DNA of 64,000 nt from Escherichia phage CMS-2020a: the sequence record CP053388.1, one strand, 5' to 3'. The first letter of the stretch is position 1; each line of letters opens with the position of its first letter. Both the position numbers and the translations under genes were made by a program. Positions 5,701 through 64,000 of the stretch are shown one piece after another. The notes below the pieces were generated by a model, which worked only from the letters and a program-made list of their open reading frames with translations, was not told the DNA's origin and did not search any database.

Positions 5701-7352
5701 ATCGTGGCAAAGGTGCTAACCATCTGGCTCCCAGCGCCAACTACCCCCATGATCCCTGCTCGCATCAGTTTGAACGCAACCATCGCGGCCACGACCTTAC
5801 CGAGATTAATTACCAGCTCTTGGTTCTTTGCTAACCATTGAGCAAGCTGACGCAACCCATCGATTGCCGTTGTTAACCCCGAACCTAAAGAATTGGCAAA
5901 CGAAATCCCTTCGGCGCTATTCATGATTGAAGCCAGTTCTTTCATCCCCTTCGATAGAGAATCCAGATATCCGGCCTGACCAACCCGATCAGCAAATAAC
6001 GTGAATGACGTCTGAAGTTGCGCCAGCGCACCTGTGTAGGTTTGCATCATGTCTTTCGCTGCGTTCTCATTCTCCGCACGCAGACCAACAAACATCAGAG
6101 ACAACGCCTGTTTTGCCTCAACCGTACCGCTGGCAACGGCTTTAGTCAGTTCCCCCATAGTGATGCCTGCGGCGTCTGCCATTGCCTGCATCGCGTTAGG
6201 AACGGCTTCACCTAATTGCTGACGTAGCTCTTCCATTGACACGACGCCCTTACCGGACATCTGCTGAACGGCCACAGCCGCACGTTTCAACAGCTCACTA
6301 TCACCACCAAAACGAGCAACGGAGTCCACCAGCGCCTTCAGAGAGCCATCGGTTGGATCTAAGCCAGCAGAACGAAACTTCACGAAGGAATCTGTTAACG
6401 CCTGCATCGCGAACGGCGCATTTTGAGCCATGTCTACGATGTACTTCATGTCATCGGCGGCAGCCTGGCCAGGGTTAGACTTCTCCTTATTCAACCCACG
6501 AAGCATCACCCGCATACGTTCCATTTCGGCCGCAGCTTCAACAATAGGCTTCTGCCATCCAAACATGATGTCAGTAACCGTTCTGGCTGCATCTCCGATC
6601 TCGCCAAGCAGGAAAATGTTGCCACGAAGGCCAGAGAACATACCTCCTTCGTTACTTTTACCGCTATGGCCAGAGCCGCTACGCCGCCCGCTGCCACCAT
6701 CGCCACTTCCAGATGTACGAACGCGTACCGGCTTGCTAATCAGTTGCTGACGTCCGATAACTTCGTCCATCTGCTCACGAACCTTTTTCAGTCCCTCGGC
6801 AGCCTGACTCGTTGTGACACCCCAATTACTGAGTCGCTTCGTCGTGGTATTAAGGCGCGTATTCATGCCACTCACGGACGCAGAGGCTTCTTTGACCTCC
6901 GTACCAAAGCGGCTTGCGCTTTTGCTTGCATAGGTCGCCCAATCAGAGAAATCATTTAGCTCTGATTGCACTTTACGTAATGACGCGGTGAGTTTATCTA
7001 CTGAAGAAGTTGTCGTATCGACGCGCTCAATCAGGGCTTTAAGACCAGAATTGAGGCTGGTGATGTTGCCACGCATTTTACGCGTAGCATCTGAAGCAAG
7101 CTCAAAACCGGCAGCTACATCCTGTAGTTTATCTGCCGTAGAATCGAGCTTGCTTTCCAGAACGCCAATGATACGGGCGACCGAACCCAAAGAGCGTTCA
7201 AAGGTTTGGATTTTTTGAGCAGGCTTTGTTACCTGCTCACCAAATCGAGTAAGCAGTTTCCCCGCACGATCGATTGACGCTGTAAACTGTTTGTCTTCCA
7301 GCGACAGGATAAACTCTACGTTTTGTGACATTCCCTTGTCATCCTCTGCCAA
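2763..7352 (-). CDS. Tail tape measure protein
   Basis: 1529 aa, long helical and coiled-coil regions, Gly-rich C-terminal segment, hydrophobic mid-region; follows the chaperone pair. Confidence 0.85.
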   Translation of the reverse strand: MAEDDKGMSQNVEFILSLEDKQFTASIDRAGKLLTRFGEQVTKPAQKIQTFERSLGSVARIIGVLESKLDSTADKLQDVAAGFELASDATRKMRGNITSLNSGLKALIERVDTTTSSVDKLTASLRKVQSELNDFSDWATYASKSASRFGTEVKEASASVSGMNTRLNTTTKRLSNWGVTTSQAAEGLKKVREQMDEVIGRQQLISKPVRVRTSGSGDGGSGRRSGSGHSGKSNEGGMFSGLRGNIFLLGEIGDAARTVTDIMFGWQKPIVEAAAEMERMRVMLRGLNKEKSNPGQAAADDMKYIVDMAQNAPFAMQALTDSFVKFRSAGLDPTDGSLKALVDSVARFGGDSELLKRAAVAVQQMSGKGVVSMEELRQQLGEAVPNAMQAMADAAGITMGELTKAVASGTVEAKQALSLMFVGLRAENENAAKDMMQTYTGALAQLQTSFTLFADRVGQAGYLDSLSKGMKELASIMNSAEGISFANSLGSGLTTAIDGLRQLAQWLAKNQELVINLGKVVAAMVAFKLMRAGIMGVVGAGSQMVSTFATMATAIQTPFNLGATAVTRFNRAARMGLAPIPSLIFAIRGAITGLKGAFAGLTAFIAANPIGAAFTVATVAVAGLITYMTMLRSETSKVVDEIRKIPEAMTAAKRAQMADRAEKLEKQILADQRALKTGEGVNYVSNSAGVITHKESKADIEARLKKNQEEYQKITGTIALGDGAVAKRLAKEAAESQIEKIRAENQIFAATFVKARQEALDKIQKINDDGSLSDDEKNKLLAPLRETVNKSYLEPAQKLVDSLSSRKNATEKQIATLNDQLEKAKKDGNTEQIQKLQGSIRGYQEHLEAVAQELTQAEFERDNAAKTGKGVMSNQGTVLGLGTTDKAAQKALAQYMRNQMDSATYQRTLPDGTPMMDFEGKPIIGPKQLKTQLNLQKASSASSLEKMSDEERAAAIAALTKAREQDAAAAEKAAQRSANASQRAAKKEQAAQQKLAAGYQKALDKADQLMGQMGESSKATVSFDQSLRDTTKSLTDLANAVPNEFITQEMIDKAKKRLEDLKNATPEYREMFNRRNVEQMISTWAPEADSIISAGYTPSREEKVADFEDTYNRNLKALIELRDKASDPKVVALYTKKINQLIAAGNTALIKETGTATQKLALEYENLAEQIESTWTDLFSGLTDVLTDFVINGKMSFSSLSQSILKDITNMVVKSQITLPLMNMLGMGTTAAGSSQSGNLLTGVASAVANQGVRMGNTVNGDKSVGEATKETSSSVTGLGQTTQQTTSAIGTATNAIGSWVSGLFDSTEAKDAETKAVKDSIFSMQNLSSVTGALSAAFAMLGANASGSGNKWLNFGATVASGLVSVWAGGGFDGLMSGSSGSTSGFNNLTSSAADGTNGIPAIPKFANGGIFGKDGVIPLRAYQKGGIANSPQLALFGEGDMNEAYVPLPDGRTIPVTLSTDGMSGGGNVLSPVSIEINVHSDGSTTESGDTESIWNNAAQRMKAIALETIAQEKRPGGSLNPNTQRN

Positions 7353-7608
7353 ATATTTGCATCAGTTGCTCTTTGGCGTCAGGGTCTGCCTTATCCTGGC
7401 TTGGATCGTAGACTTTATCTGTTACGACTGGTCTTCCAATCCTGAGTTGCAAACCCTCCATGAACGCCTTCACAGCCTCGCCATCCGCCTGGGACGCACG
7501 AGCGACTTGTAAGTTGCGGACATCCTCTTCCGCACGCAGACGGTCTATATTGCGACTGAGCATCCAGAACATCGTGAGAGGAACGTTCAGTAGCTCTAAT
7601 GGCGACAC
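7339..7608 (-). CDS. Tail assembly chaperone, T-like segment (probable -1 frameshift extension of the G-like ORF)
   Basis: ORF starts with GTG; its frame stays open upstream to about 7725, overlapping the 3' end of the G-like ORF in the -1 frame. Confidence 0.45.
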   Translation of the reverse strand: MSPLELLNVPLTMFWMLSRNIDRLRAEEDVRNLQVARASQADGEAVKAFMEGLQLRIGRPVVTDKVYDPSQDKADPDAKEQLMQIFGRG

Positions 7609-7688
7609 GGCGTAGTGAGCAACTACACGACTGAAATAGAATCCGAGATCTATTGAGACGGTCCTTGTCCCGGATTCATCGCGGGAAA

Positions 7689-32105: not shown

Positions 32106-34139
32106 TTACTTAACTTGGTGGCCTGGTTTAGCACCAGCATCCGGGCTTAACAGGAAGATATCTTTTCCGCCAGGGCCAGCAGCCATCACCATGCCTTCGG
32201 AGATACCGAAGCGCATTTTACGCGGTGCCAGGTTAGCCACCATAATGGTGTGACGACCAATCAGTGCCTGTGGATCTGGATAAGCGGAACGAATGCCTGA
32301 GAAGACATTACGTTTTTCTCCGCCGAGATCCAGTGTCAGGCGCAGCAGTTTGTCAGAACCTTCGACAAACTCCGCGTTTTCAATCAGCGCCACACGCAGG
32401 TCAACTTTGGCGAAGTCGTCAAAGGTGATGGTTTCCTGAATCGGGGCGTCAGCCAGTGGGCCAGTTACCGGTGCAGCTGTGGCTTTCACTTCTTCTTTGG
32501 ATGCTTCCACCAGTGCTTCCACCTGTTTCATATCGATACGGTTATACAGTGCCTTGAACGGATTCACTTTATGGCCCAGCAGCGGTTGCTGGATACCATC
32601 CCAGGTCAGTTCTGTATTCAGGAATGCTTCTGCACGTTCAGTCAGTTTCGGCAGTACCGGTTTCAGGTACGTCATCAGCACGCGGAACAGGTTAATGCCC
32701 ATAGAGCAAATCGCCTGCAGATCGGCATCGCGTCCTTCCTGCTTCGCCACCACCCACGGAGCCTGTTCATCAACATAGCGGTTAGCCAGGTCAGCCAGTG
32801 CCATGATTTCACGGATAGCTTTGCCAAATTCGCGGCTTTCCCATGCTTCGCCAATCACTTCAGCGGCATCAGTAAAGGTTTTGTACAGTTGCGGGTCAGC
32901 CAGTTCGCTTGCCAGCACGCCGTCAAAACGCTTGTTGATAAAGCCTGCATTACGGGAGGCCAGGTTAACCACTTTGTTCACGATATCGGCATTCACGCGC
33001 TGAACGAAATCTTCCAGGTTGAGATCGATATCATCAATGCGCGAAGAGAGTTTCGCAGTGTAGTAGTAACGCAGGCTGTCGGCGTCAAAATGATTCAGCC
33101 AGGTGCTGGCTTTAATAAAGGTGCCGCGAGACTTGGACATCTTCGCACCGTTCACCGTCACATAGCCATGAACAAACAGGTTGGTCGGCTTGCGGAAGTT
33201 GCTGCCTTCTAGCATGGCAGGCCAGAACAGGCTGTGGAAGTAAACGATATCTTTGCCGATGAAGTGGTACAGCTCGGCGGTGGAGTCTTTCTTCCAGTAT
33301 TCGTCGAAGCTGGTAGTGTCGCCGCGTTTGTCGCACAGATTCTTGAAGGAACCCATGTAGCCAATCGGCGCGTCCAGCCAGACGTAGAAGTATTTGCCCG
33401 GTGCGTTCGGAATTTCAAAACCGAAGTAAGGTGCGTCACGGGAGATATCCCACTGTTGCAGGCCAGATTCAAACCACTCCTGCATTTTGTTTGCCACCTG
33501 CTCCTGCAACGCACCGCTGCGGGTCCATGCCTGCAACATTTCGCTGAAAGAAGGCAGATCAAAGAAGAAGTGTTCGGAATCACGCATTACCGGTGTAGCG
33601 CCAGAAACTACCGATTTCGGCTCGATCAGTTCCGTCGGGCTGTATGTCGCGCCGCAGACTTCACAGTTATCGCCGTATTGATCCGGCGCTTTACATTTCG
33701 GGCATGTGCCTTTTACAAAACGGTCCGGCAGGAACATGCCTTTTTCCGGGTCGTACAGCTGAGAGATGGTGCGGTTTTTAATAAAACCGTTCTCTTTCAG
33801 GCGAGTGTAGATAAGCTCGGACAACTGACGGTTCTCTTCGCTGTGCGTCGAGTGATAGTTGTCATAGCTGATGTTAAAGCCTGCGAAATCAGTCTGATGT
33901 TCCTGACTCATTTCGCCAATCATCTGCTCCGGTGTGATACCAAGCTGCTGTGCTTTCAGCATGATCGGCGTACCGTGGGCATCGTCGGCACAGATGAAAT
34001 TAACCTCGTGGCCGCGCATTCGCTGGTAACGAACCCAGACATCAGCCTGGATGTGCTCCAGCATATGGCCGAGGTGGATTGAGCCGTTAGCGTACGGCAG
34101 CGCGCACGTCACCAGAATTTTCTTCGCGACTTGGGTCAT
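32106..34139 (-). CDS. metG: Methionyl-tRNA synthetase
   Basis: 677 aa from [29 protein letters not shown] (HIGH motif) through KMSKS to the C-terminal dimerisation/tRNA-binding domain; matches E. coli MetG nearly residue for residue from memory. The track ORF (to 34268) adds a spurious 43-aa extension. Confidence 0.95.
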
Positions 34140-34296
34140 AGTAGGCATTACTTCTTTGTAGTGAAAAGGGGCTTGATAGTAACAAAATGGCCTTATGTCT
34201 GCCATGTGATAACAGCATTTCTCATAAATGATTAAATGTCGTAGCTGGAGTACACTACAAGGCGACAATTGCGCAAATTAAAATAAAGGAGACGGG

Positions 34297-35397
34297 ATGA
34301 GCGAGTCCAAATCGCCGGATGCCCTGAGAGCAATGGTAGCCGGTACGCTGGCTAATTTTCAGCACCCAACCCTGAAACACAACCTGACTACGCTTAAAGC
34401 GTTACACCATGTTGCGTTGATGGATGACACACTGCATGTCGAACTAATCATGCCTTTCGTGTGGAATAAGCCTTTTGAAGACCTGAAAGAGCAATGTAGT
34501 GGTGATCTGCTCCGTATCACTGGCGCAAAGGCTATTGACTGGAAGCTGTCGTACAACATTGCCACGCTTAAGCGTGTCAAAAACCAACCAGGCATTAATG
34601 GCGTTAAGAACATTATCGCCGTCAGCTCAGGCAAGGGCGGCGTGGGTAAATCCTCCACGGCGGTAAACCTGGCACTGGCGTTGGCTGCTGAAGGTGCGAA
34701 AGTTGGTATTTTGGATGCCGATATCTATGGTCCATCAATTCCAACCATGCTGGGCGCGGAAAACCAACGTCCAACCTCACCTGACGGTACTCACATGGCA
34801 CCTATCATGTCTCATGGCCTGGCAACCAACTCTATTGGTTATCTGGTCACCGACGACAATGCAATGGTGTGGCGTGGACCGATGGCCAGCAAGGCGCTGA
34901 TGCAGATGTTGCAGGAAACATTGTGGCCTGATCTGGACTATCTTGTTCTCGATATGCCGCCGGGCACTGGTGATATTCAGTTGACGCTGGCGCAGAACAT
35001 TCCTGTAACTGGTGCTGTTGTGGTAACTACGCCGCAAGACATCGCGCTGATCGATGCGAAGAAAGGCATTGTGATGTTCGAAAAAGTCGAAGTGCCGGTA
35101 CTGGGTATCGTTGAAAACATGAGTGTGCATATTTGCAGTAACTGCGGTCATCACGAGCCAATTTTTGGCACCGGTGGCGCACAGAAACTGGCCGAGAAAT
35201 ACAACACGCAGTTGTTAGGCCAAATGCCACTTCATATCTCTCTTCGTGAAGATCTGGATAACGGAACACCAACCGTTATTAGTCGTCCAGATAGCGAATT
35301 TACAGCTATTTATCGTGACCTCGCAGATCGCGTTGCCGCCCAAATGTATTGGCAAGGTGAAGTAATACCTGGCGAAATCGCATTCCGCGCAGTGTGA
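34297..35397 (+). CDS. apbC: Fe-S cluster carrier ATPase ApbC/Mrp
   Basis: Deviant Walker A SGKGGVGKSSTAVNLA, CxxC motif (ICSNCGHH); divergent from metG exactly as in the E. coli mrp-metG locus. Confidence 0.9.
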   Translation: MSESKSPDALRAMVAGTLANFQHPTLKHNLTTLKALHHVALMDDTLHVELIMPFVWNKPFEDLKEQCSGDLLRITGAKAIDWKLSYNIATLKRVKNQPGINGVKNIIAVSSGKGGVGKSSTAVNLALALAAEGAKVGILDADIYGPSIPTMLGAENQRPTSPDGTHMAPIMSHGLATNSIGYLVTDDNAMVWRGPMASKALMQMLQETLWPDLDYLVLDMPPGTGDIQLTLAQNIPVTGAVVVTTPQDIALIDAKKGIVMFEKVEVPVLGIVENMSVHICSNCGHHEPIFGTGGAQKLAEKYNTQLLGQMPLHISLREDLDNGTPTVISRPDSEFTAIYRDLADRVAAQMYWQGEVIPGEIAFRAV

Positions 35398-35824: not shown

Positions 35825-35840
35825 AATACTCGCCTCTTAA

Positions 35841-35860
35841 TACTGTATACACATACAGTA
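35841..35860. promoter_or_regulatory. LexA (SOS) box
   Basis: TACTGTATACACATACAGTA = CTGT-N8-ACAG palindrome, 17 bp upstream of the UmuD'-like start codon. Confidence 0.8.
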
Positions 35861-36180
35861 TATATTGAAGCTATATATTTTTGAACTCTATCTCTTAAAA
35901 AAGATGTTAATAAGATGCTAACTATTGAAAGGCATAAATATATACAATTCAAACAAACGTTATTTTTAACAAATTTTTTCTTCCCATTGACTTTTTCGAA
36001 CGCCTTGTCCGGTCTAAAGTGCGCAGAAGTCACTTTTTCCTTCCTGAGTTATCCACAGGCTTATGCACTTGCATGAAAAATCTATTCACACTATCTTAAT
36101 TCGCAAGACACTGATGTTGCAGTATTGAGGGTATGTTGGGTTAAAAATAGACATTAAAAAGCCCAGTTGACTAGGCTGGG

Positions 36181-36212
36181 CTTTTTAAAAGGAAACAGAG
36201 TTTGCGGCTCTG
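36181..36212 (+). terminator. Rho-independent terminator (plus orientation) in the AT-rich non-coding region
   Basis: Hairpin agcccagttgactaggctgggct followed by ttttt. Confidence 0.5.
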
Positions 36213-36582
36213 TTCCTGAGCCATAAGTATCTGGCGACTGAGCTAAGATTAACCGAATGTACTGGATTCATCAAGAAACGTTGAGTGGTCATACTAGGTA
36301 ATAATGACCATTTACTAAACATCGTTGTTCTCAAAGAAGATTTAAGTCCAGGTTTTTGGTGACTCTAAAACCTTACCTTAACTCGAAATCGTGCCGTAAG
36401 TATCTGGCGACTACAGATATTGCAACTGCAAAGGCAAGCTCAAAGGTATTTGCAGCTAGGTGCGATAAAACTAAGTGAGGCCTATAGTGCTTAACTTACT
36501 TTTCAAAATCGTGCCGCCTATGTTCGCAATCATCGAAGCGATCATTGAGTACGTCAACCAGCGCCCATAATGCTAGTTGTTA

Positions 36583-36612
36583 CCGGCCCCATCCAAATGG
36601 GGCCATTTTATT
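36583..36612 (+). terminator. Rho-independent terminator (plus orientation)
   Basis: Hairpin ggccccatccaaatggggcc followed by attttatt. Confidence 0.45.
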
Positions 36613-36619
36613 GTATTGA

Positions 36620-37252
36620 CTACATACTTTCTGATCTAATTGAGTTGTTCACTGCTCTGGCAATCTTCTCCCGCAATTGCTGCGCTCCGTGGTACTGAAC
36701 CGCAATATCCCGCAACTCGTTCACCAGTTCTCTAATCTGGTGATCTTTAAGCTCATTATTTGGGTGATGGGTAACAACTCTGGTTAATTCACCCTTGTCT
36801 TTTGCTCTTACGTATGCAGCTCTTGTGCATTCGACCCATGTATTACCGCCTACATTAACTTCGTAGATTAGGCTGGACTTATCTGTCAATTCGGAACAAA
36901 TACGGGCCGTGGTCTGGCAACTAGAGCATTCGCAGTTATCGCGGAAACCGTGATCTACCGGTCGAGAAAGAGGTTTAACTTTTTCATCCAACTTCATCAC
37001 AGCATCGTGATAAGCGTTCCAGCCGTCATCTTTACCAAGTTGATAAATCTCTGAAGGCTCCATGTAGTCTATATCGCAACCTTCTTCATCCGATCTATCT
37101 GGTCGCTTCCCTGGTAATCGCTCATAAAAACGTTTTCTGTCTCGACGTTCGGCTCTCAGAGCTAACGCAAGAAGTTGCTCAAGCGAGGTATTTGCACCAG
37201 CAATAATTTCATTGAGAATATCTTCTGTGAGATCTTTCGCTACCGTGCTCAT
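36620..37252 (-). CDS. Hypothetical protein
   Basis: 210 aa ORF coupled to the upstream gene. Confidence 0.5.
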   Translation of the reverse strand: MSTVAKDLTEDILNEIIAGANTSLEQLLALALRAERRDRKRFYERLPGKRPDRSDEEGCDIDYMEPSEIYQLGKDDGWNAYHDAVMKLDEKVKPLSRPVDHGFRDNCECSSCQTTARICSELTDKSSLIYEVNVGGNTWVECTRAAYVRAKDKGELTRVVTHHPNNELKDHQIRELVNELRDIAVQYHGAQQLREKIARAVNNSIRSESM

Positions 37253-41492: not shown

Positions 41493-43178
41493 TCATTTAA
41501 CGCGTTTGAAAACGTATACGCTGACTGTGATCCCTGTGTCTTCAAACTCGTTGGTAAACGACTTCCCTCTGGCATAAACGTAATTATCCATCGTCATCCA
41601 GTCCAGTATTGGCGCAGTGCCCGGCAATACTGCTACAAGACGCCCGCCGACTTTCAGATGCCCCAGCGCAGCCAGCGTGTGCTCTCTATGACGACCAAGC
41701 GAGTACGGCGGGTTCATAACGATTTTGTCGAACTGATAACCTACGTTGTCCTCAGACCACTTTATGAAGTCGCAGCAAATCGTGTTCGTATACCCTTTTC
41801 CGCGCAGGATATCAGCGAAGAGAGGTGCGATTTCTATGCAGGTAACATCTTCCAGATCGGCGTTGATATAGGCCAGAAGATCCCCACGTCCGGCTTGAGG
41901 CTCCAGCAGCTTCTCACCAGACTTCAATTCAGTGGCTCTGGCAACGTACTCAGCAATCAAGCGTGGGGTAGGGTAGAACTGGTGTGATTTTGTATCCGGT
42001 ATTAATCCGGTAGCCACAATCGTATTTAGCGTATGGCCGATCTCATACGGGAACTGCCAGTGTTTTTTCTCCTGCACGCCGCCAATGAAGCTCAGTGTGC
42101 GCTCAAGCTCTTCCACCTGCGACTTCTGGAGAGCTGAATCAGAGAAGTACCATACGCCTTTGTCTTTGCTCAATCGCCCGTCACGAAGCGCAGTGCGAAC
42201 CGGCACGGAGATCGTCTTCTGGATTAACCCGAACTGCTTTGGTGCCCGTGTTTTTGGCGCAGTTCGGCATGGCGCGGGGATTGCAGCAGGCATACTGTAA
42301 GCCAGCACCTCATTCAACTTCCAGGCCACGTCAGGATGTATTTCAAAGTGAACGTTGCCGTTCTTGAACATCTTCACGCGCATCAGATTTCCATCGACGT
42401 TCATCCAGTCACCGGTCTGGCAGTCGTTTGCTCGATACGCAGCTGATAGCACCTCAGCAGTGCGGTTGATGGTAATAAATTCTTTGTGCGCGAAGAAATG
42501 AAGCAAGACACGCAGATCGTCGATGTAGTCCTCTTTGCGATAGTTCACGCTAACGCTGTCCCGCCAGAAATCAGAAATGCAGTCAGCGATTATCAGACGC
42601 TCGCTGAAACCGTTTGTCTTATTTGTCTTGTGCGCAGGACTCAGCGCCTTAAACAAGCCATACACGCGCTCAGAGAGATATTTGTGCCTGTCATTCAGCA
42701 AATTAAGCATCGTGGGTATGACCGTTTCTGCTTTGAACTCCGGTACACCAACGAACTCTTTAACCTTCATCTGGTAGCCGGTTCTGTCAGTTTTGATGAC
42801 TTCCTGTTTGCCCTCTATAAACTGCTCGCGCCACTCATCTCGACGGGAAGCTGGCATGATCAGCAAAACGTTAGTCATGTCCGTGACCTTCCTCCAGTAC
42901 TCGGCCCAAATATTCTGTTTCACCCATTCCAGATCGACTTTATCCAACCAACCTCGATTTAAACGCGAGCGATCTTCATCTGGTCGATGGTTTAGTCTCA
43001 GCAGGCGATTAATCATGTTGTGGCGTTCGTCGCCATAAACGAAGTCGTGTACCTGATACATGAAGGCGATCTCTTTCTCGCACTCGGCCACAATTTCGTG
43101 GATGACGTTCATTTCCTGCCGATAGTCGATAGCAGTGTTTGAGTTGGCATCGTCGATGATGGAAAGGGCTGTATTCAT
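41493..43178 (-). CDS. Large protein with C-terminal N6-adenine (or N4-cytosine) methyltransferase domain
   Basis: FYPTPRLIAEY, motif I-like LEPQAGRGDLL, then motif IV IVMNPPYS within the last about 180 aa; N-terminal about 380 aa of unknown function. Confidence 0.55.
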   Translation of the reverse strand: MNTALSIIDDANSNTAIDYRQEMNVIHEIVAECEKEIAFMYQVHDFVYGDERHNMINRLLRLNHRPDEDRSRLNRGWLDKVDLEWVKQNIWAEYWRKVTDMTNVLLIMPASRRDEWREQFIEGKQEVIKTDRTGYQMKVKEFVGVPEFKAETVIPTMLNLLNDRHKYLSERVYGLFKALSPAHKTNKTNGFSERLIIADCISDFWRDSVSVNYRKEDYIDDLRVLLHFFAHKEFITINRTAEVLSAAYRANDCQTGDWMNVDGNLMRVKMFKNGNVHFEIHPDVAWKLNEVLAYSMPAAIPAPCRTAPKTRAPKQFGLIQKTISVPVRTALRDGRLSKDKGVWYFSDSALQKSQVEELERTLSFIGGVQEKKHWQFPYEIGHTLNTIVATGLIPDTKSHQFYPTPRLIAEYVARATELKSGEKLLEPQAGRGDLLAYINADLEDVTCIEIAPLFADILRGKGYTNTICCDFIKWSEDNVGYQFDKIVMNPPYSLGRHREHTLAALGHLKVGGRLVAVLPGTAPILDWMTMDNYVYARGKSFTNEFEDTGITVSVYVFKRVK

Positions 43179-48051: not shown

Positions 48052-48645
48052 CTAAGCAGCCTTCTTTGATGGTCTTTTTTTCCTGATCACATTCGCAGGA
48101 TCATACCCTCCCAGACTTTTCATGACGTCCAAAGGGATCTTGCTTATAGAGTGCCCAGCGTCCTGACAGAATCCTCGAAAAACAACGAGCATACTGCCAC
48201 CTGGGTTGATGTTTACTTCTACCTGACCCAGATTTACGTCAGGCTCGACAAACGCTACGCGGCCACCAGACAGAATAATCGTCTCATTCGCACACTCTGT
48301 TGCACGCTCATACCACTTTGTATCTAGGGATTGAGGAATTAGCATCACTGTTGTAACTCCACGAGCCTGCTCACGTATAGCCGCATCAATCCAGGGGGAG
48401 ATTTTGGAGTAGGGTGGATTGAGGAAGGCAATTGTACCTGGCTGTCCCCATTCAGATTTCAAAGCATCACGCTCAACGCCTATGAAATTAGGCAGCTTTG
48501 CATTGTCCTTGTTGCAGGCAACGTCAACATCAAATGTCACTCCAAGATAACGTTGAATGGCAGAAAACAGCCAGTCAGGTGTTCTCCAGAGGTCACGAAG
48601 AGAGTTGTCGCGCTTTCGCTGTTTGATTTTTTCGGCTGCAATCAT
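48052..48645 (-). CDS. dam: Phage-type DNA N6-adenine methyltransferase
   Basis: WRTPDWLF and FLNPPYS motifs in a 197-aa protein typical of small phage Dam-family enzymes; motif B at 48655-48677 upstream. Target sequence not determinable. Confidence 0.8.
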   Translation of the reverse strand: MIAAEKIKQRKRDNSLRDLWRTPDWLFSAIQRYLGVTFDVDVACNKDNAKLPNFIGVERDALKSEWGQPGTIAFLNPPYSKISPWIDAAIREQARGVTTVMLIPQSLDTKWYERATECANETIILSGGRVAFVEPDVNLGQVEVNINPGGSMLVVFRGFCQDAGHSISKIPLDVMKSLGGYDPANVIRKKRPSKKAA

Positions 48646-63034: not shown

Positions 63035-63679
63035 TTACAGCGCGTCAGTGGGCTTTTTACGCGCTGCGTTTATGCTTATGACGCCAGCTTTTGGACGTGG
63101 GTCAACAAGGTTAAGCTCTTCTTCGCTGTGGTATTCGAGGTCGAACTCACGTTTTACATGTCTGATGTAGATTGCGGTGAGCAGGCTATCTTTGGTCAGA
63201 AAGTGTCCGTAGGATTTGCGGATCACTTCTTCTACCTTCTCGATTTTCTCACCACCCATACAGAGATGATTAAACCGGCTGTGTTTCCGCAACATTTCGT
63301 CTACTGGGCCTGAGTAAACCTTGTCTACTTTCCCAAAACGGATGATTTTCCCTGTGTCTGCGGATACGAGGCAAATCAGCTTGTCTGGTGATAAACGATC
63401 TCGCCACGTCACACCTGAACGGAGTGTGTTGAAGTAGGGGGCATCCAATCCGATGATCGGTTTACGAAATGCGAGTAATGGAACGTACCTGATGCAACTG
63501 TTTAAATGAAAATTCACACCAGCCTTATCAAGTTTAATTCTGGTTTCGTAGATCGGGCACTTCGCCGCTATACCGCAGATGTCACAAAGCAACTTCTGCT
63601 TATTCAGGTTGGAATTTGATTCGATAGTGTAGGAGCCGTCTTCAAGACGACGAACCCAGCGCGTGCGTTTTAGATCCAT
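63035..63679 (-). CDS. Hypothetical protein with Cys-rich putative zinc-binding segment
   Basis: 214 aa; CDICGIAAKCPIY...C pattern; function unknown. Confidence 0.45.
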   Translation of the reverse strand: MDLKRTRWVRRLEDGSYTIESNSNLNKQKLLCDICGIAAKCPIYETRIKLDKAGVNFHLNSCIRYVPLLAFRKPIIGLDAPYFNTLRSGVTWRDRLSPDKLICLVSADTGKIIRFGKVDKVYSGPVDEMLRKHSRFNHLCMGGEKIEKVEEVIRKSYGHFLTKDSLLTAIYIRHVKREFDLEYHSEEELNLVDPRPKAGVISINAARKKPTDAL

Positions 63680-63765
63680 ATGTCATTTTTCTGTGATTGT
63701 TAGCCGAGGCAACGATAACCCACCAGGTGCGCCGAAGGTAGTAAATGCCTGTTTTAATTATTCAC

Positions 63766-63774
63766 ATATCCACA
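63766..63774. promoter_or_regulatory. DnaA box-like site
   Basis: ATATCCACA, 8 of 9 match to TTATCCACA, directly before the GATC cluster. Confidence 0.45.
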
Positions 63775-63779
63775 GGATA

Positions 63780-63838
63780 GATCCTAATAAAGAGATCCAT
63801 AGATAGATCCTTATATAGATCAAATAAGATCCCCGATC
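63780..63838. repeat. GATC cluster (six Dam sites in 59 bp) in AGATCC-type short repeats
   Basis: GATC at 63780, 63794, 63806, 63818, 63828, 63835. Confidence 0.7.
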
Positions 63839-63880
63839 GCTGTAAGCCGCGCCACGACTGGTCTAAAGTCATGTTCATGT

Positions 63881-63980
63881 ATGCTGTCAGCGGTAATTGA
63901 TAGTCTGTCAGCGGTTCACCGTATGCTGCCAACTGTTTTTGGTATTCTGTCAGCGGCAAATCAAGTATGCTGTCAGCGGT
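63881..63980. repeat. Iteron array, type 2 (TGTCAGCGG core)
   Basis: atgctgtcagcggt (63881), gtctgtcagcggt (63904), degenerate gtatgctgccaac (63921), ttctgtcagcggc (63946), atgctgtcagcggt (63967); 21-22 bp spacing; array may continue past the window end. Confidence 0.65.
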
Positions 63981-64000
63981 TGAATGACAAAGGTGTCCAC

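Follow-up and report, generated by a model that had tools for sequence, protein, structure and literature searches.

A probable P1-type plasmid replication origin at the end of an SSU5-like phage-plasmid sequence

The window analyzed here, a stretch of 64,000 nucleotides, ends in what is very probably the plasmid-prophage replication origin of an SSU5-like phage-plasmid, equivalent to the oriR/incC region of phage P1 and homologous to the P1 oriR-repA-incA module. The whole origin occupies window positions 63758–63980 and consists of two DnaA boxes, six GATC sites, a GC-rich spacer, and five iterons on the same strand. An earlier note on this DNA had proposed a P1 oriR-type architecture here, and the proposal has held up well. 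The RepA that goes with the origin is 46% identical to P1 RepA over 278 amino acids (P1 residues 20–284 of 286; E = 3e-86), and the left half of the origin aligns with P1 oriR in the same order and at nearly the same distances.

The window is the last 64 kb of a phage-plasmid of the SSU5 supergroup, in the pECOH89/p09EL50 lineage. A search with its last kilobase gave 461 plasmid and several phage records, with an identity of 99.8–99.9% to E. coli and Shigella plasmids of ∼100–114 kb, 99.8% to Escherichia phage CMS-2020a, 99.0% to PhiR41_1, 90% to Cyrano, and 77% to Salmonella phage SSU5; pECOH89 (NC_023916.1) is 99.5% identical over the covered part of the query. The announcement of pECOH89 presents it as a phage-like plasmid with homology to SSU5, p09EL50, and pHCM2; its RepA is given as the same protein as in p09EL50 and as showing 48% similarity to the RepA of pLF82 (PMC3999498). 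Over the stretch equivalent to the window, a sister plasmid is annotated with tail, capsid, portal, and terminase genes. Many of the deposited records are linearized at exactly the point where the window ends, the end of the record being the end of the match. The origin is present in 118 of 5,426 complete E. coli genomes (2.2%), at 119 sites, each of them on a circular plasmid and not one on a chromosome. In PLSDB, rep_cluster_488 is the sole replicon of pECAZ162_2 and pERB3f3, and the PlasmidFinder name IncFIB(H89-PhagePlasmid) is used in 25 papers; the replicon is already part of typing schemes. We found no paper that dissects this origin, and the accounts of the element family give only the presence of RepA.

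At the outer edge of the origin, where a P1-type replicon carries its tandem DnaA boxes, two such boxes are found on the + strand (63758–63774). The first (63758–63766), TTATTCACA, is a perfect match to TTATNCACA and aligns with the first of the two boxes annotated in P1 oriR, while the second (63766–63774), ATATCCACA, agrees with TTATCCACA at eight of nine positions and aligns with the second P1 box; the two have the base at 63766 in common. The earlier note had correctly picked out the second box as a DnaA-box-like 9-mer, but the perfect box beside it was missed. Single boxes occur at chance level in the window, which contains 3 perfect boxes against 2.55 expected and 75 9-mers with one mismatch or fewer against 62 expected. 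The evidential weight of the boxes lies only in their tandem arrangement and context. In an alignment of five lineages, 13 of the 17 columns that make up the boxes are invariant. Two arrays of DnaA boxes have been described at the P1 origin in a review, which suggests that one of them is enough there (PMC4980987). On the repA side of the iterons, the window has a single weak match at seven of nine positions, GTGTCCACA (63993–64001, + strand), in place of additional boxes. Since one array seems to be enough in P1, we take this to be a difference from P1 and not a reason for exclusion from the P1 type.

Between the DnaA boxes and the iterons lies an A+T-rich (67%) block (63776–63839, + strand), which carries six GATC sites, five of them as AGATC(C/A) heptamers and the final one within CGATCG. 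The sites start at 63780, 63794, 63806, 63818, 63828, and 63835, that is, six in 59 bp, where the window mean of 4.56 GATC per kb predicts ∼0.27. This cluster, which the earlier note had reported, withstands both the site count and shuffling: of 200 shuffled sequences, 163 had a maximum of three GATC per 59-bp span, 29 had four, 1 had five, and none had six. It is also the only cluster of its kind in the 64 kb, the maximum elsewhere being three per 59-bp span. The A+T content is 67% in 63775–63834 versus 53% in the window as a whole and 33% in the core of the adjoining spacer. We compared four lineages that carry this type of iteron (the window, two Klebsiella phage-plasmids, and one E. coli IncF plasmid), and all 24 GATC bases are invariant among them, as opposed to 17 of the 35 bases between the sites. 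By analogy with P1, the block is presumed to be the region of DNA unwinding and of Dam/SeqA control. The spacer that follows (63840–63879, + strand) has a conserved GC-rich core, GCCGCGCCACG (63846–63856), and 18 of the 22 bases in 63839–63860 are the same as in P1.

The iterons are five copies of a 15-mer with the consensus TATGCTGTCAGCGGT, all on the + strand and upstream of repA, spaced by 21, 21, 21, and 23 bp and thus two helical turns apart, as in P1 incC. Iterons 1 (63880–63894) and 5 (63966–63980) read TATGCTGTCAGCGGT, iteron 2 (63901–63915) reads TAGTCTGTCAGCGGT, and iteron 4 (63943–63957) reads TATTCTGTCAGCGGC; iteron 3 (63922–63936), TATGCTGCCAACTGT, is degenerate, and it is so in all four related lineages. 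The iteron core TGTCAGCGG has four exact copies in the 64 kb, all of them at the origin (63885, 63906, 63948, and 63971), against an expected count of 0.46, and four copies were reached in none of 100 shuffles. The fifth copy of the core is degenerate, TGCCAACTG at 63926, and in register with the others. The repeats seen by the earlier note are therefore real and number five, but the array is complete within the window, ending at 63980, and does not extend past 64000 as had been supposed. Across the four lineages, 54 of the 75 bases within the 15-mers are invariant, compared with 11 of the 26 bases between iterons, and so the motifs are better kept than the spacers. A 65-residue open reading frame on the reverse strand (63762–63959) was rejected as an artifact of the repeats. 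No inverted repeats were found in 63600–64000, and Rfam, run on the replicon in E-value mode and on the entire window in gathering mode, gave no match to a known antisense or regulatory RNA family.

The earlier note had also predicted a rep gene just past position 64000, and this prediction is borne out by a 364-residue RepA that starts at the base corresponding to 64001, the first beyond the window, in over 100 plasmid and phage records of nearly the same sequence. repA itself lies past the window end, and its sequence was taken from records that are 99.0–99.9% identical to the window over the last 1 kb. In PhiR41_1, a 364-residue coding sequence annotated as "DNA replication protein" begins one base past the match; CP054387.1 encodes the same RepA at record positions 1–1092 with 100% identity; and in pECAZ162_2, the repA ATG at position 6002 of the extracted locus (L001) corresponds to window position 64001. 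The leader that separates the last iteron from the gene (63981–64000, + strand) contains an AAAGG ribosome-binding site (63989–63993), 7 nt before the ATG.

The usual RefSeq/PGAP call for this gene is a different one, a 404-residue "RepB family" reading frame that starts at window position 63881, inside iteron 1 (L001 5882–7096). We rejected this start because the extra 40 residues are translated iterons (MLSAV... repeated), because the related Klebsiella plasmid pL3995-2 has an in-frame TGA three codons upstream of the repA ATG, and because similarity to P1 RepA starts only at residue 32 of the 364-residue form. The ATG at 64001 is thus likely the true start of repA. A consensus scan of the replicon gave no σ70-like promoter site for repA on the + strand. 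The positions that align with P1 PrepA are poor promoter matches, and each iteron begins with a −10-like TATGCT. A candidate extended −10 element, TGGTATTCT (63940–63948), was dropped, as it is not conserved in relatives. With the promoter not located and the PrepA-aligned positions poor, autorepression of repA is put forward only by analogy.

The 364-residue RepA matches the Pfam Rep3_N profile (PF01051), that of the RepE-class winged-helix initiators, at E = 3.9e-9 and 37.5 bits, above the curated cutoff of 22.4, whereas no NCBIfam family and, at E ≤ 1, no PDB chain was found for it by sequence. A tblastn comparison with P1 and P7 gives 43.5% identity, which places a homologue of P1 RepA beside the iterons. 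A C-terminal extension of ∼55 residues (residues 310–364, L001 6929–7093, outside the window; ...LTPENIKMIEILSNSLKLL) is conserved in the lineage and is missing from P1 RepA. Further iterons beyond 64000, for which the earlier note had advised a search, do exist: 12 more copies on the same strand lie downstream of repA (L001 7097–7628, outside the window), in one cluster of five that runs from the stop codon (7097–7213) and another of seven (7375–7628). The first copy abuts the stop codon, and the array corresponds to incA of P1.

The GenBank annotation of P1 oriR lists an 18-bp DnaA site, five Dam sites, five 19-bp incC iterons, repA, and nine incA iterons; the incC iterons have a period of 21–22 bp with PrepA inside them, and oriR is labeled "origin of plasmid replication". 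The block in the window is colinear with the minimal 242-bp P1 oriR, and its GATC block with Dam sites 1–5. Feature by feature, the bases identical to P1 are 23 of 24 in the GATC sites, 14 of 17 in the DnaA boxes, 18 of 22 in the GC-rich spacer, and 33 of 75 in the iterons. Judged by this alignment, the half of the origin that comprises the DnaA boxes, GATC sites, and GC-rich spacer is related to P1 oriR by homology and not by mere analogy.

A diverged copy of the replicon is found in CP099079.1, a 208-kb conjugative IncF plasmid, at L008 2197–3640, with an origin that is ∼82% identical to that of the window. The copy is a cassette of ∼1.45 kb that sits between IS21 istA and istB genes in a multireplicon plasmid; its two tandem DnaA boxes are both perfect, as in P1, and no more than three iterons lie downstream. 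Similarity to the window runs from ∼10 bp to the left of the DnaA boxes to the end of these three iterons, and MOB-suite types the segment as rep_cluster_488, as it does the phage-plasmids. The cassette, together with the plasmid-only occurrence described above, is evidence that the segment from the DnaA boxes through repA and the downstream iterons is a self-contained replicon.

A mechanism can be proposed for this origin from its homology to P1 (GenBank annotation), a published account (PMC4980987), the titles of P1 papers, and the established picture of P1 and RepFIB. RepA monomers, once activated by DnaK/DnaJ/GrpE, would bind the five in-phase iterons, and host DnaA would bind the two boxes at the outer edge. 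DnaA and RepA, with HU, would then open the A+T-rich block of GATC heptamers, at which DnaB would be loaded. Opening is expected to need full Dam methylation of the GATC sites; after passage of the fork these would be hemimethylated and bound by SeqA, which would keep the origin from firing again at once. By occupying the origin iterons, RepA may repress its own promoter, and the 12 downstream iterons may restrain copy number by titrating RepA and by pairing with the origin (handcuffing). The downstream iterons would also set the specificity of incompatibility.

We considered whether the region is, or is also, the lytic (vegetative) origin, such that a burst of phage Dam at induction could defeat SeqA sequestration, and regard this as improbable. 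The element does encode its own replication machinery and a methylase of the Dam family, and no second, lytic origin was identified in it. However, the homologous P1 module is a plasmid-maintenance origin by annotation, the same module serves as one replicon of a conjugative IncF plasmid that is not a phage, and an iteron/RepA replicon that has a control array downstream is built to limit copy number, as is established for P1 and RepFIB. As the element encodes its own replication proteins, a separate lytic origin in it is likely. The methylase, whose presence the earlier note had recognized, is encoded by a phage-type DNA N6-adenine methyltransferase gene at 48052–48645 (− strand; 197 residues), 15 kb from the origin, and the protein matches Pfam PF05869 (Dam) at E = 2.5e-38 and 131.8 bits, against a cutoff of 28.1. 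PF05869 is the phage Dam family and is distinct from the family of E. coli Dam; the homologue in a sister plasmid carries the RefSeq name "phage N-6-adenine-methyltransferase". The E. coli host provides Dam of its own. With respect to the origin, we regard this predicted enzyme as accessory.

A plasmid origin at 63758–63980 also has to be weighed against the idea that the repeats are only the repA operator and an incompatibility and copy-control locus, with initiation elsewhere on the element. In the P1 annotation, the origin iterons are indeed also the PrepA operator and incompatibility determinants. Yet the in-phase iterons, taken with the DnaA boxes and the A+T-rich GATC block, add up to a full origin, the minimal P1 oriR can be aligned with the block, and the IncF cassette has kept precisely this block but no sequence to its left, all of which makes the operator-only reading very improbable. 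Finally, the region does lie in the 321-bp gap between repA and a divergent 214-residue gene (63035–63679, − strand; no Pfam match and no NCBIfam family), but the suggestion that the GATC sites and boxes are a Dam/DnaA-regulated promoter of that gene, with the repeats incidental, has next to no probability, given that the IncF cassette has the DnaA-box, GATC, and iteron block without the 214-residue gene, that P1 has the same block beside an unrelated left neighbor, upfA, and that the iterons recur 12 times after repA.

Several other features of the window were recorded in the course of this work. At 32106–35397, a methionyl-tRNA synthetase gene (720-residue reading frame, − strand) is divergent from a gene for an ApbC/Mrp-type Fe–S carrier ATPase (366 residues, + strand), an arrangement that metG and mrp also have in the E. 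coli chromosome. A largely noncoding stretch at 35825–36620 adjoins a gene for a repressor-like S24 peptidase and has no Rfam match; it contains an SOS-box-like palindrome, CTGTATACACATACAG (35844–35859), three DnaA-box-like 9-mers on the same strand within 42 bp (36049–36090), one of them perfect, and a terminator-like hairpin (∼36160–36187). The product of the gene at 41493–43178 (− strand) is a 561-residue protein in which Pfam identifies a DUF4942 domain (E = 1.7e-20). In pERB3f3, an ISEcp1-blaCTX-M-15 unit adjoins the DUF4942 gene; at that position, the window has no reading frame of the size of CTX-M or of the ISEcp1 transposase.

Among clinical E. coli and Shigella, phage-plasmids of this SSU5-like lineage are common, and some carry blaCTX-M-15. 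Knowledge of the exact origin, the true start of RepA, and both iteron arrays bears on replicon typing, on the prediction of incompatibility, and on the interpretation of changes in copy number, and it would help in the construction of mini-replicons or of tools for curing. It also corrects a start codon that RefSeq repeatedly assigns and that leads to translation of the iterons. The scientific addition is otherwise small, as the origin is a diverged copy of one of the best-studied plasmid origins and will not surprise a specialist.

Among known replicons, those of F (oriS/RepE), pPS10 (RepA), and R6K (π) have the Pfam Rep3_N family and the general logic of iterons in common with the one described here, but are without the block of GATC heptamers. 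The likeness to RepFIB (P307, pColV-K30 REPI) comes from typing and record annotation: MOB-suite types close relatives of this replicon as IncFIB, and several records label a P1-type repA as "RepFIB replication protein A". In RepFIB, repA is flanked by iterons, and the methylation dependence of REPI has reportedly been studied, to judge by the title of a paper. RepFIB replicons sit on conjugative plasmids, not on phage-plasmids.

The replicon of SSU5, pHCM2, and pMT1 occupies the same position in the backbone, between the 214-residue gene and small leftward genes. Through the last GATC, the sequence of this type is 77–90% identical to the window, while its RepA is only 48% identical, and the iterons of SSU5, pMT1, and Cyrano are of the ATCCACTATAGAGAG type, unlike those of the window. 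The window resembles Cyrano (90.5%) and SSU5 (77%) across the 214-residue gene, both DnaA boxes, and the GATC block, and the similarity ends at ∼63839–63849. That homology stops right after the last GATC, with RepA only 48% identical beyond, suggests an exchange of an iteron-repA cassette at the conserved half of the origin. The type of iteron tracks RepA, being the same in the Klebsiella relatives, whose RepA is ∼85% identical, and different in SSU5 (48%) and in P1. The origin core of the SSU5/pMT1 type is moreover tandemly duplicated with a period of ∼375–383 bp (SSU5, L004 1770–2400; Y. pestis pMT, L010 2550–3200; phage Cyrano, L011 2550–3190), while it is single-copy in the lineage of the window. 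The distal copy has DnaA boxes, six intact GATC sites, and five iterons, and in the repA-proximal copy most of the GATC sites have decayed to GAAC or GACC.

A more speculative reading, which we think rather unlikely, is that the half with the DnaA boxes and GATC sites acts as a fixed "socket" for exchanged cassettes of iterons plus repA, and that the element's own Dam overrides SeqA at induction. If the first part were true, the socket would be common to P1-like, RepFIB, and SSU5-like elements, and recombination of cassettes would give rise to new incompatibility types. If the second were true, the six GATC sites would be freed from SeqA, and an origin that otherwise fires once per cycle would go over to runaway firing.

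The closest parallel in overall design is P1 itself. The order is the same in both: two DnaA boxes, GATC heptamers, a GC-rich spacer, five iterons at ∼21 bp, repA, and a second array. The distance from the DnaA boxes to the first GATC is 5 bp in each case, that from the last GATC to the first iteron is 39 bp in P1 and 41 bp in the window, and the first incA iteron of P1 (iteron 9) starts at the repA stop codon, just as the downstream array does in the lineage of the window. The window has six GATC sites to the five of P1 because P1 has GGTC at the position of the second. P1 has iterons of the GATGTGTGCTGGAGGG type in place of those of the window; GATGTGTGCTGGAGGGAAA in P1 compares with TATGCTGTCAGCGGT here, and the identity in register is 44%. 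Since the iteron sequences are unlike, a different incompatibility specificity is expected. Downstream of repA, P1 has 9 iterons, compared with the 12 in two clusters (5 + 7) of this lineage. Between the last iteron and repA, P1 has ∼56 bp with DnaA-box-like 9-mers, whereas the leader in the window measures only 20 bp and therefore leaves no room for them. RepA is 78 residues longer than that of P1, with a K-rich N-terminus and the C-terminal tail of ∼55 residues, and there is no parAB operon directly past the downstream iterons, as there is in P1. P1 and the element studied here are both phage-plasmids that encode an adenine methylase of their own. The element family is well described, and within it, this origin is best filed as an uncharacterized iteron replicon of the P1/RepFIB type.
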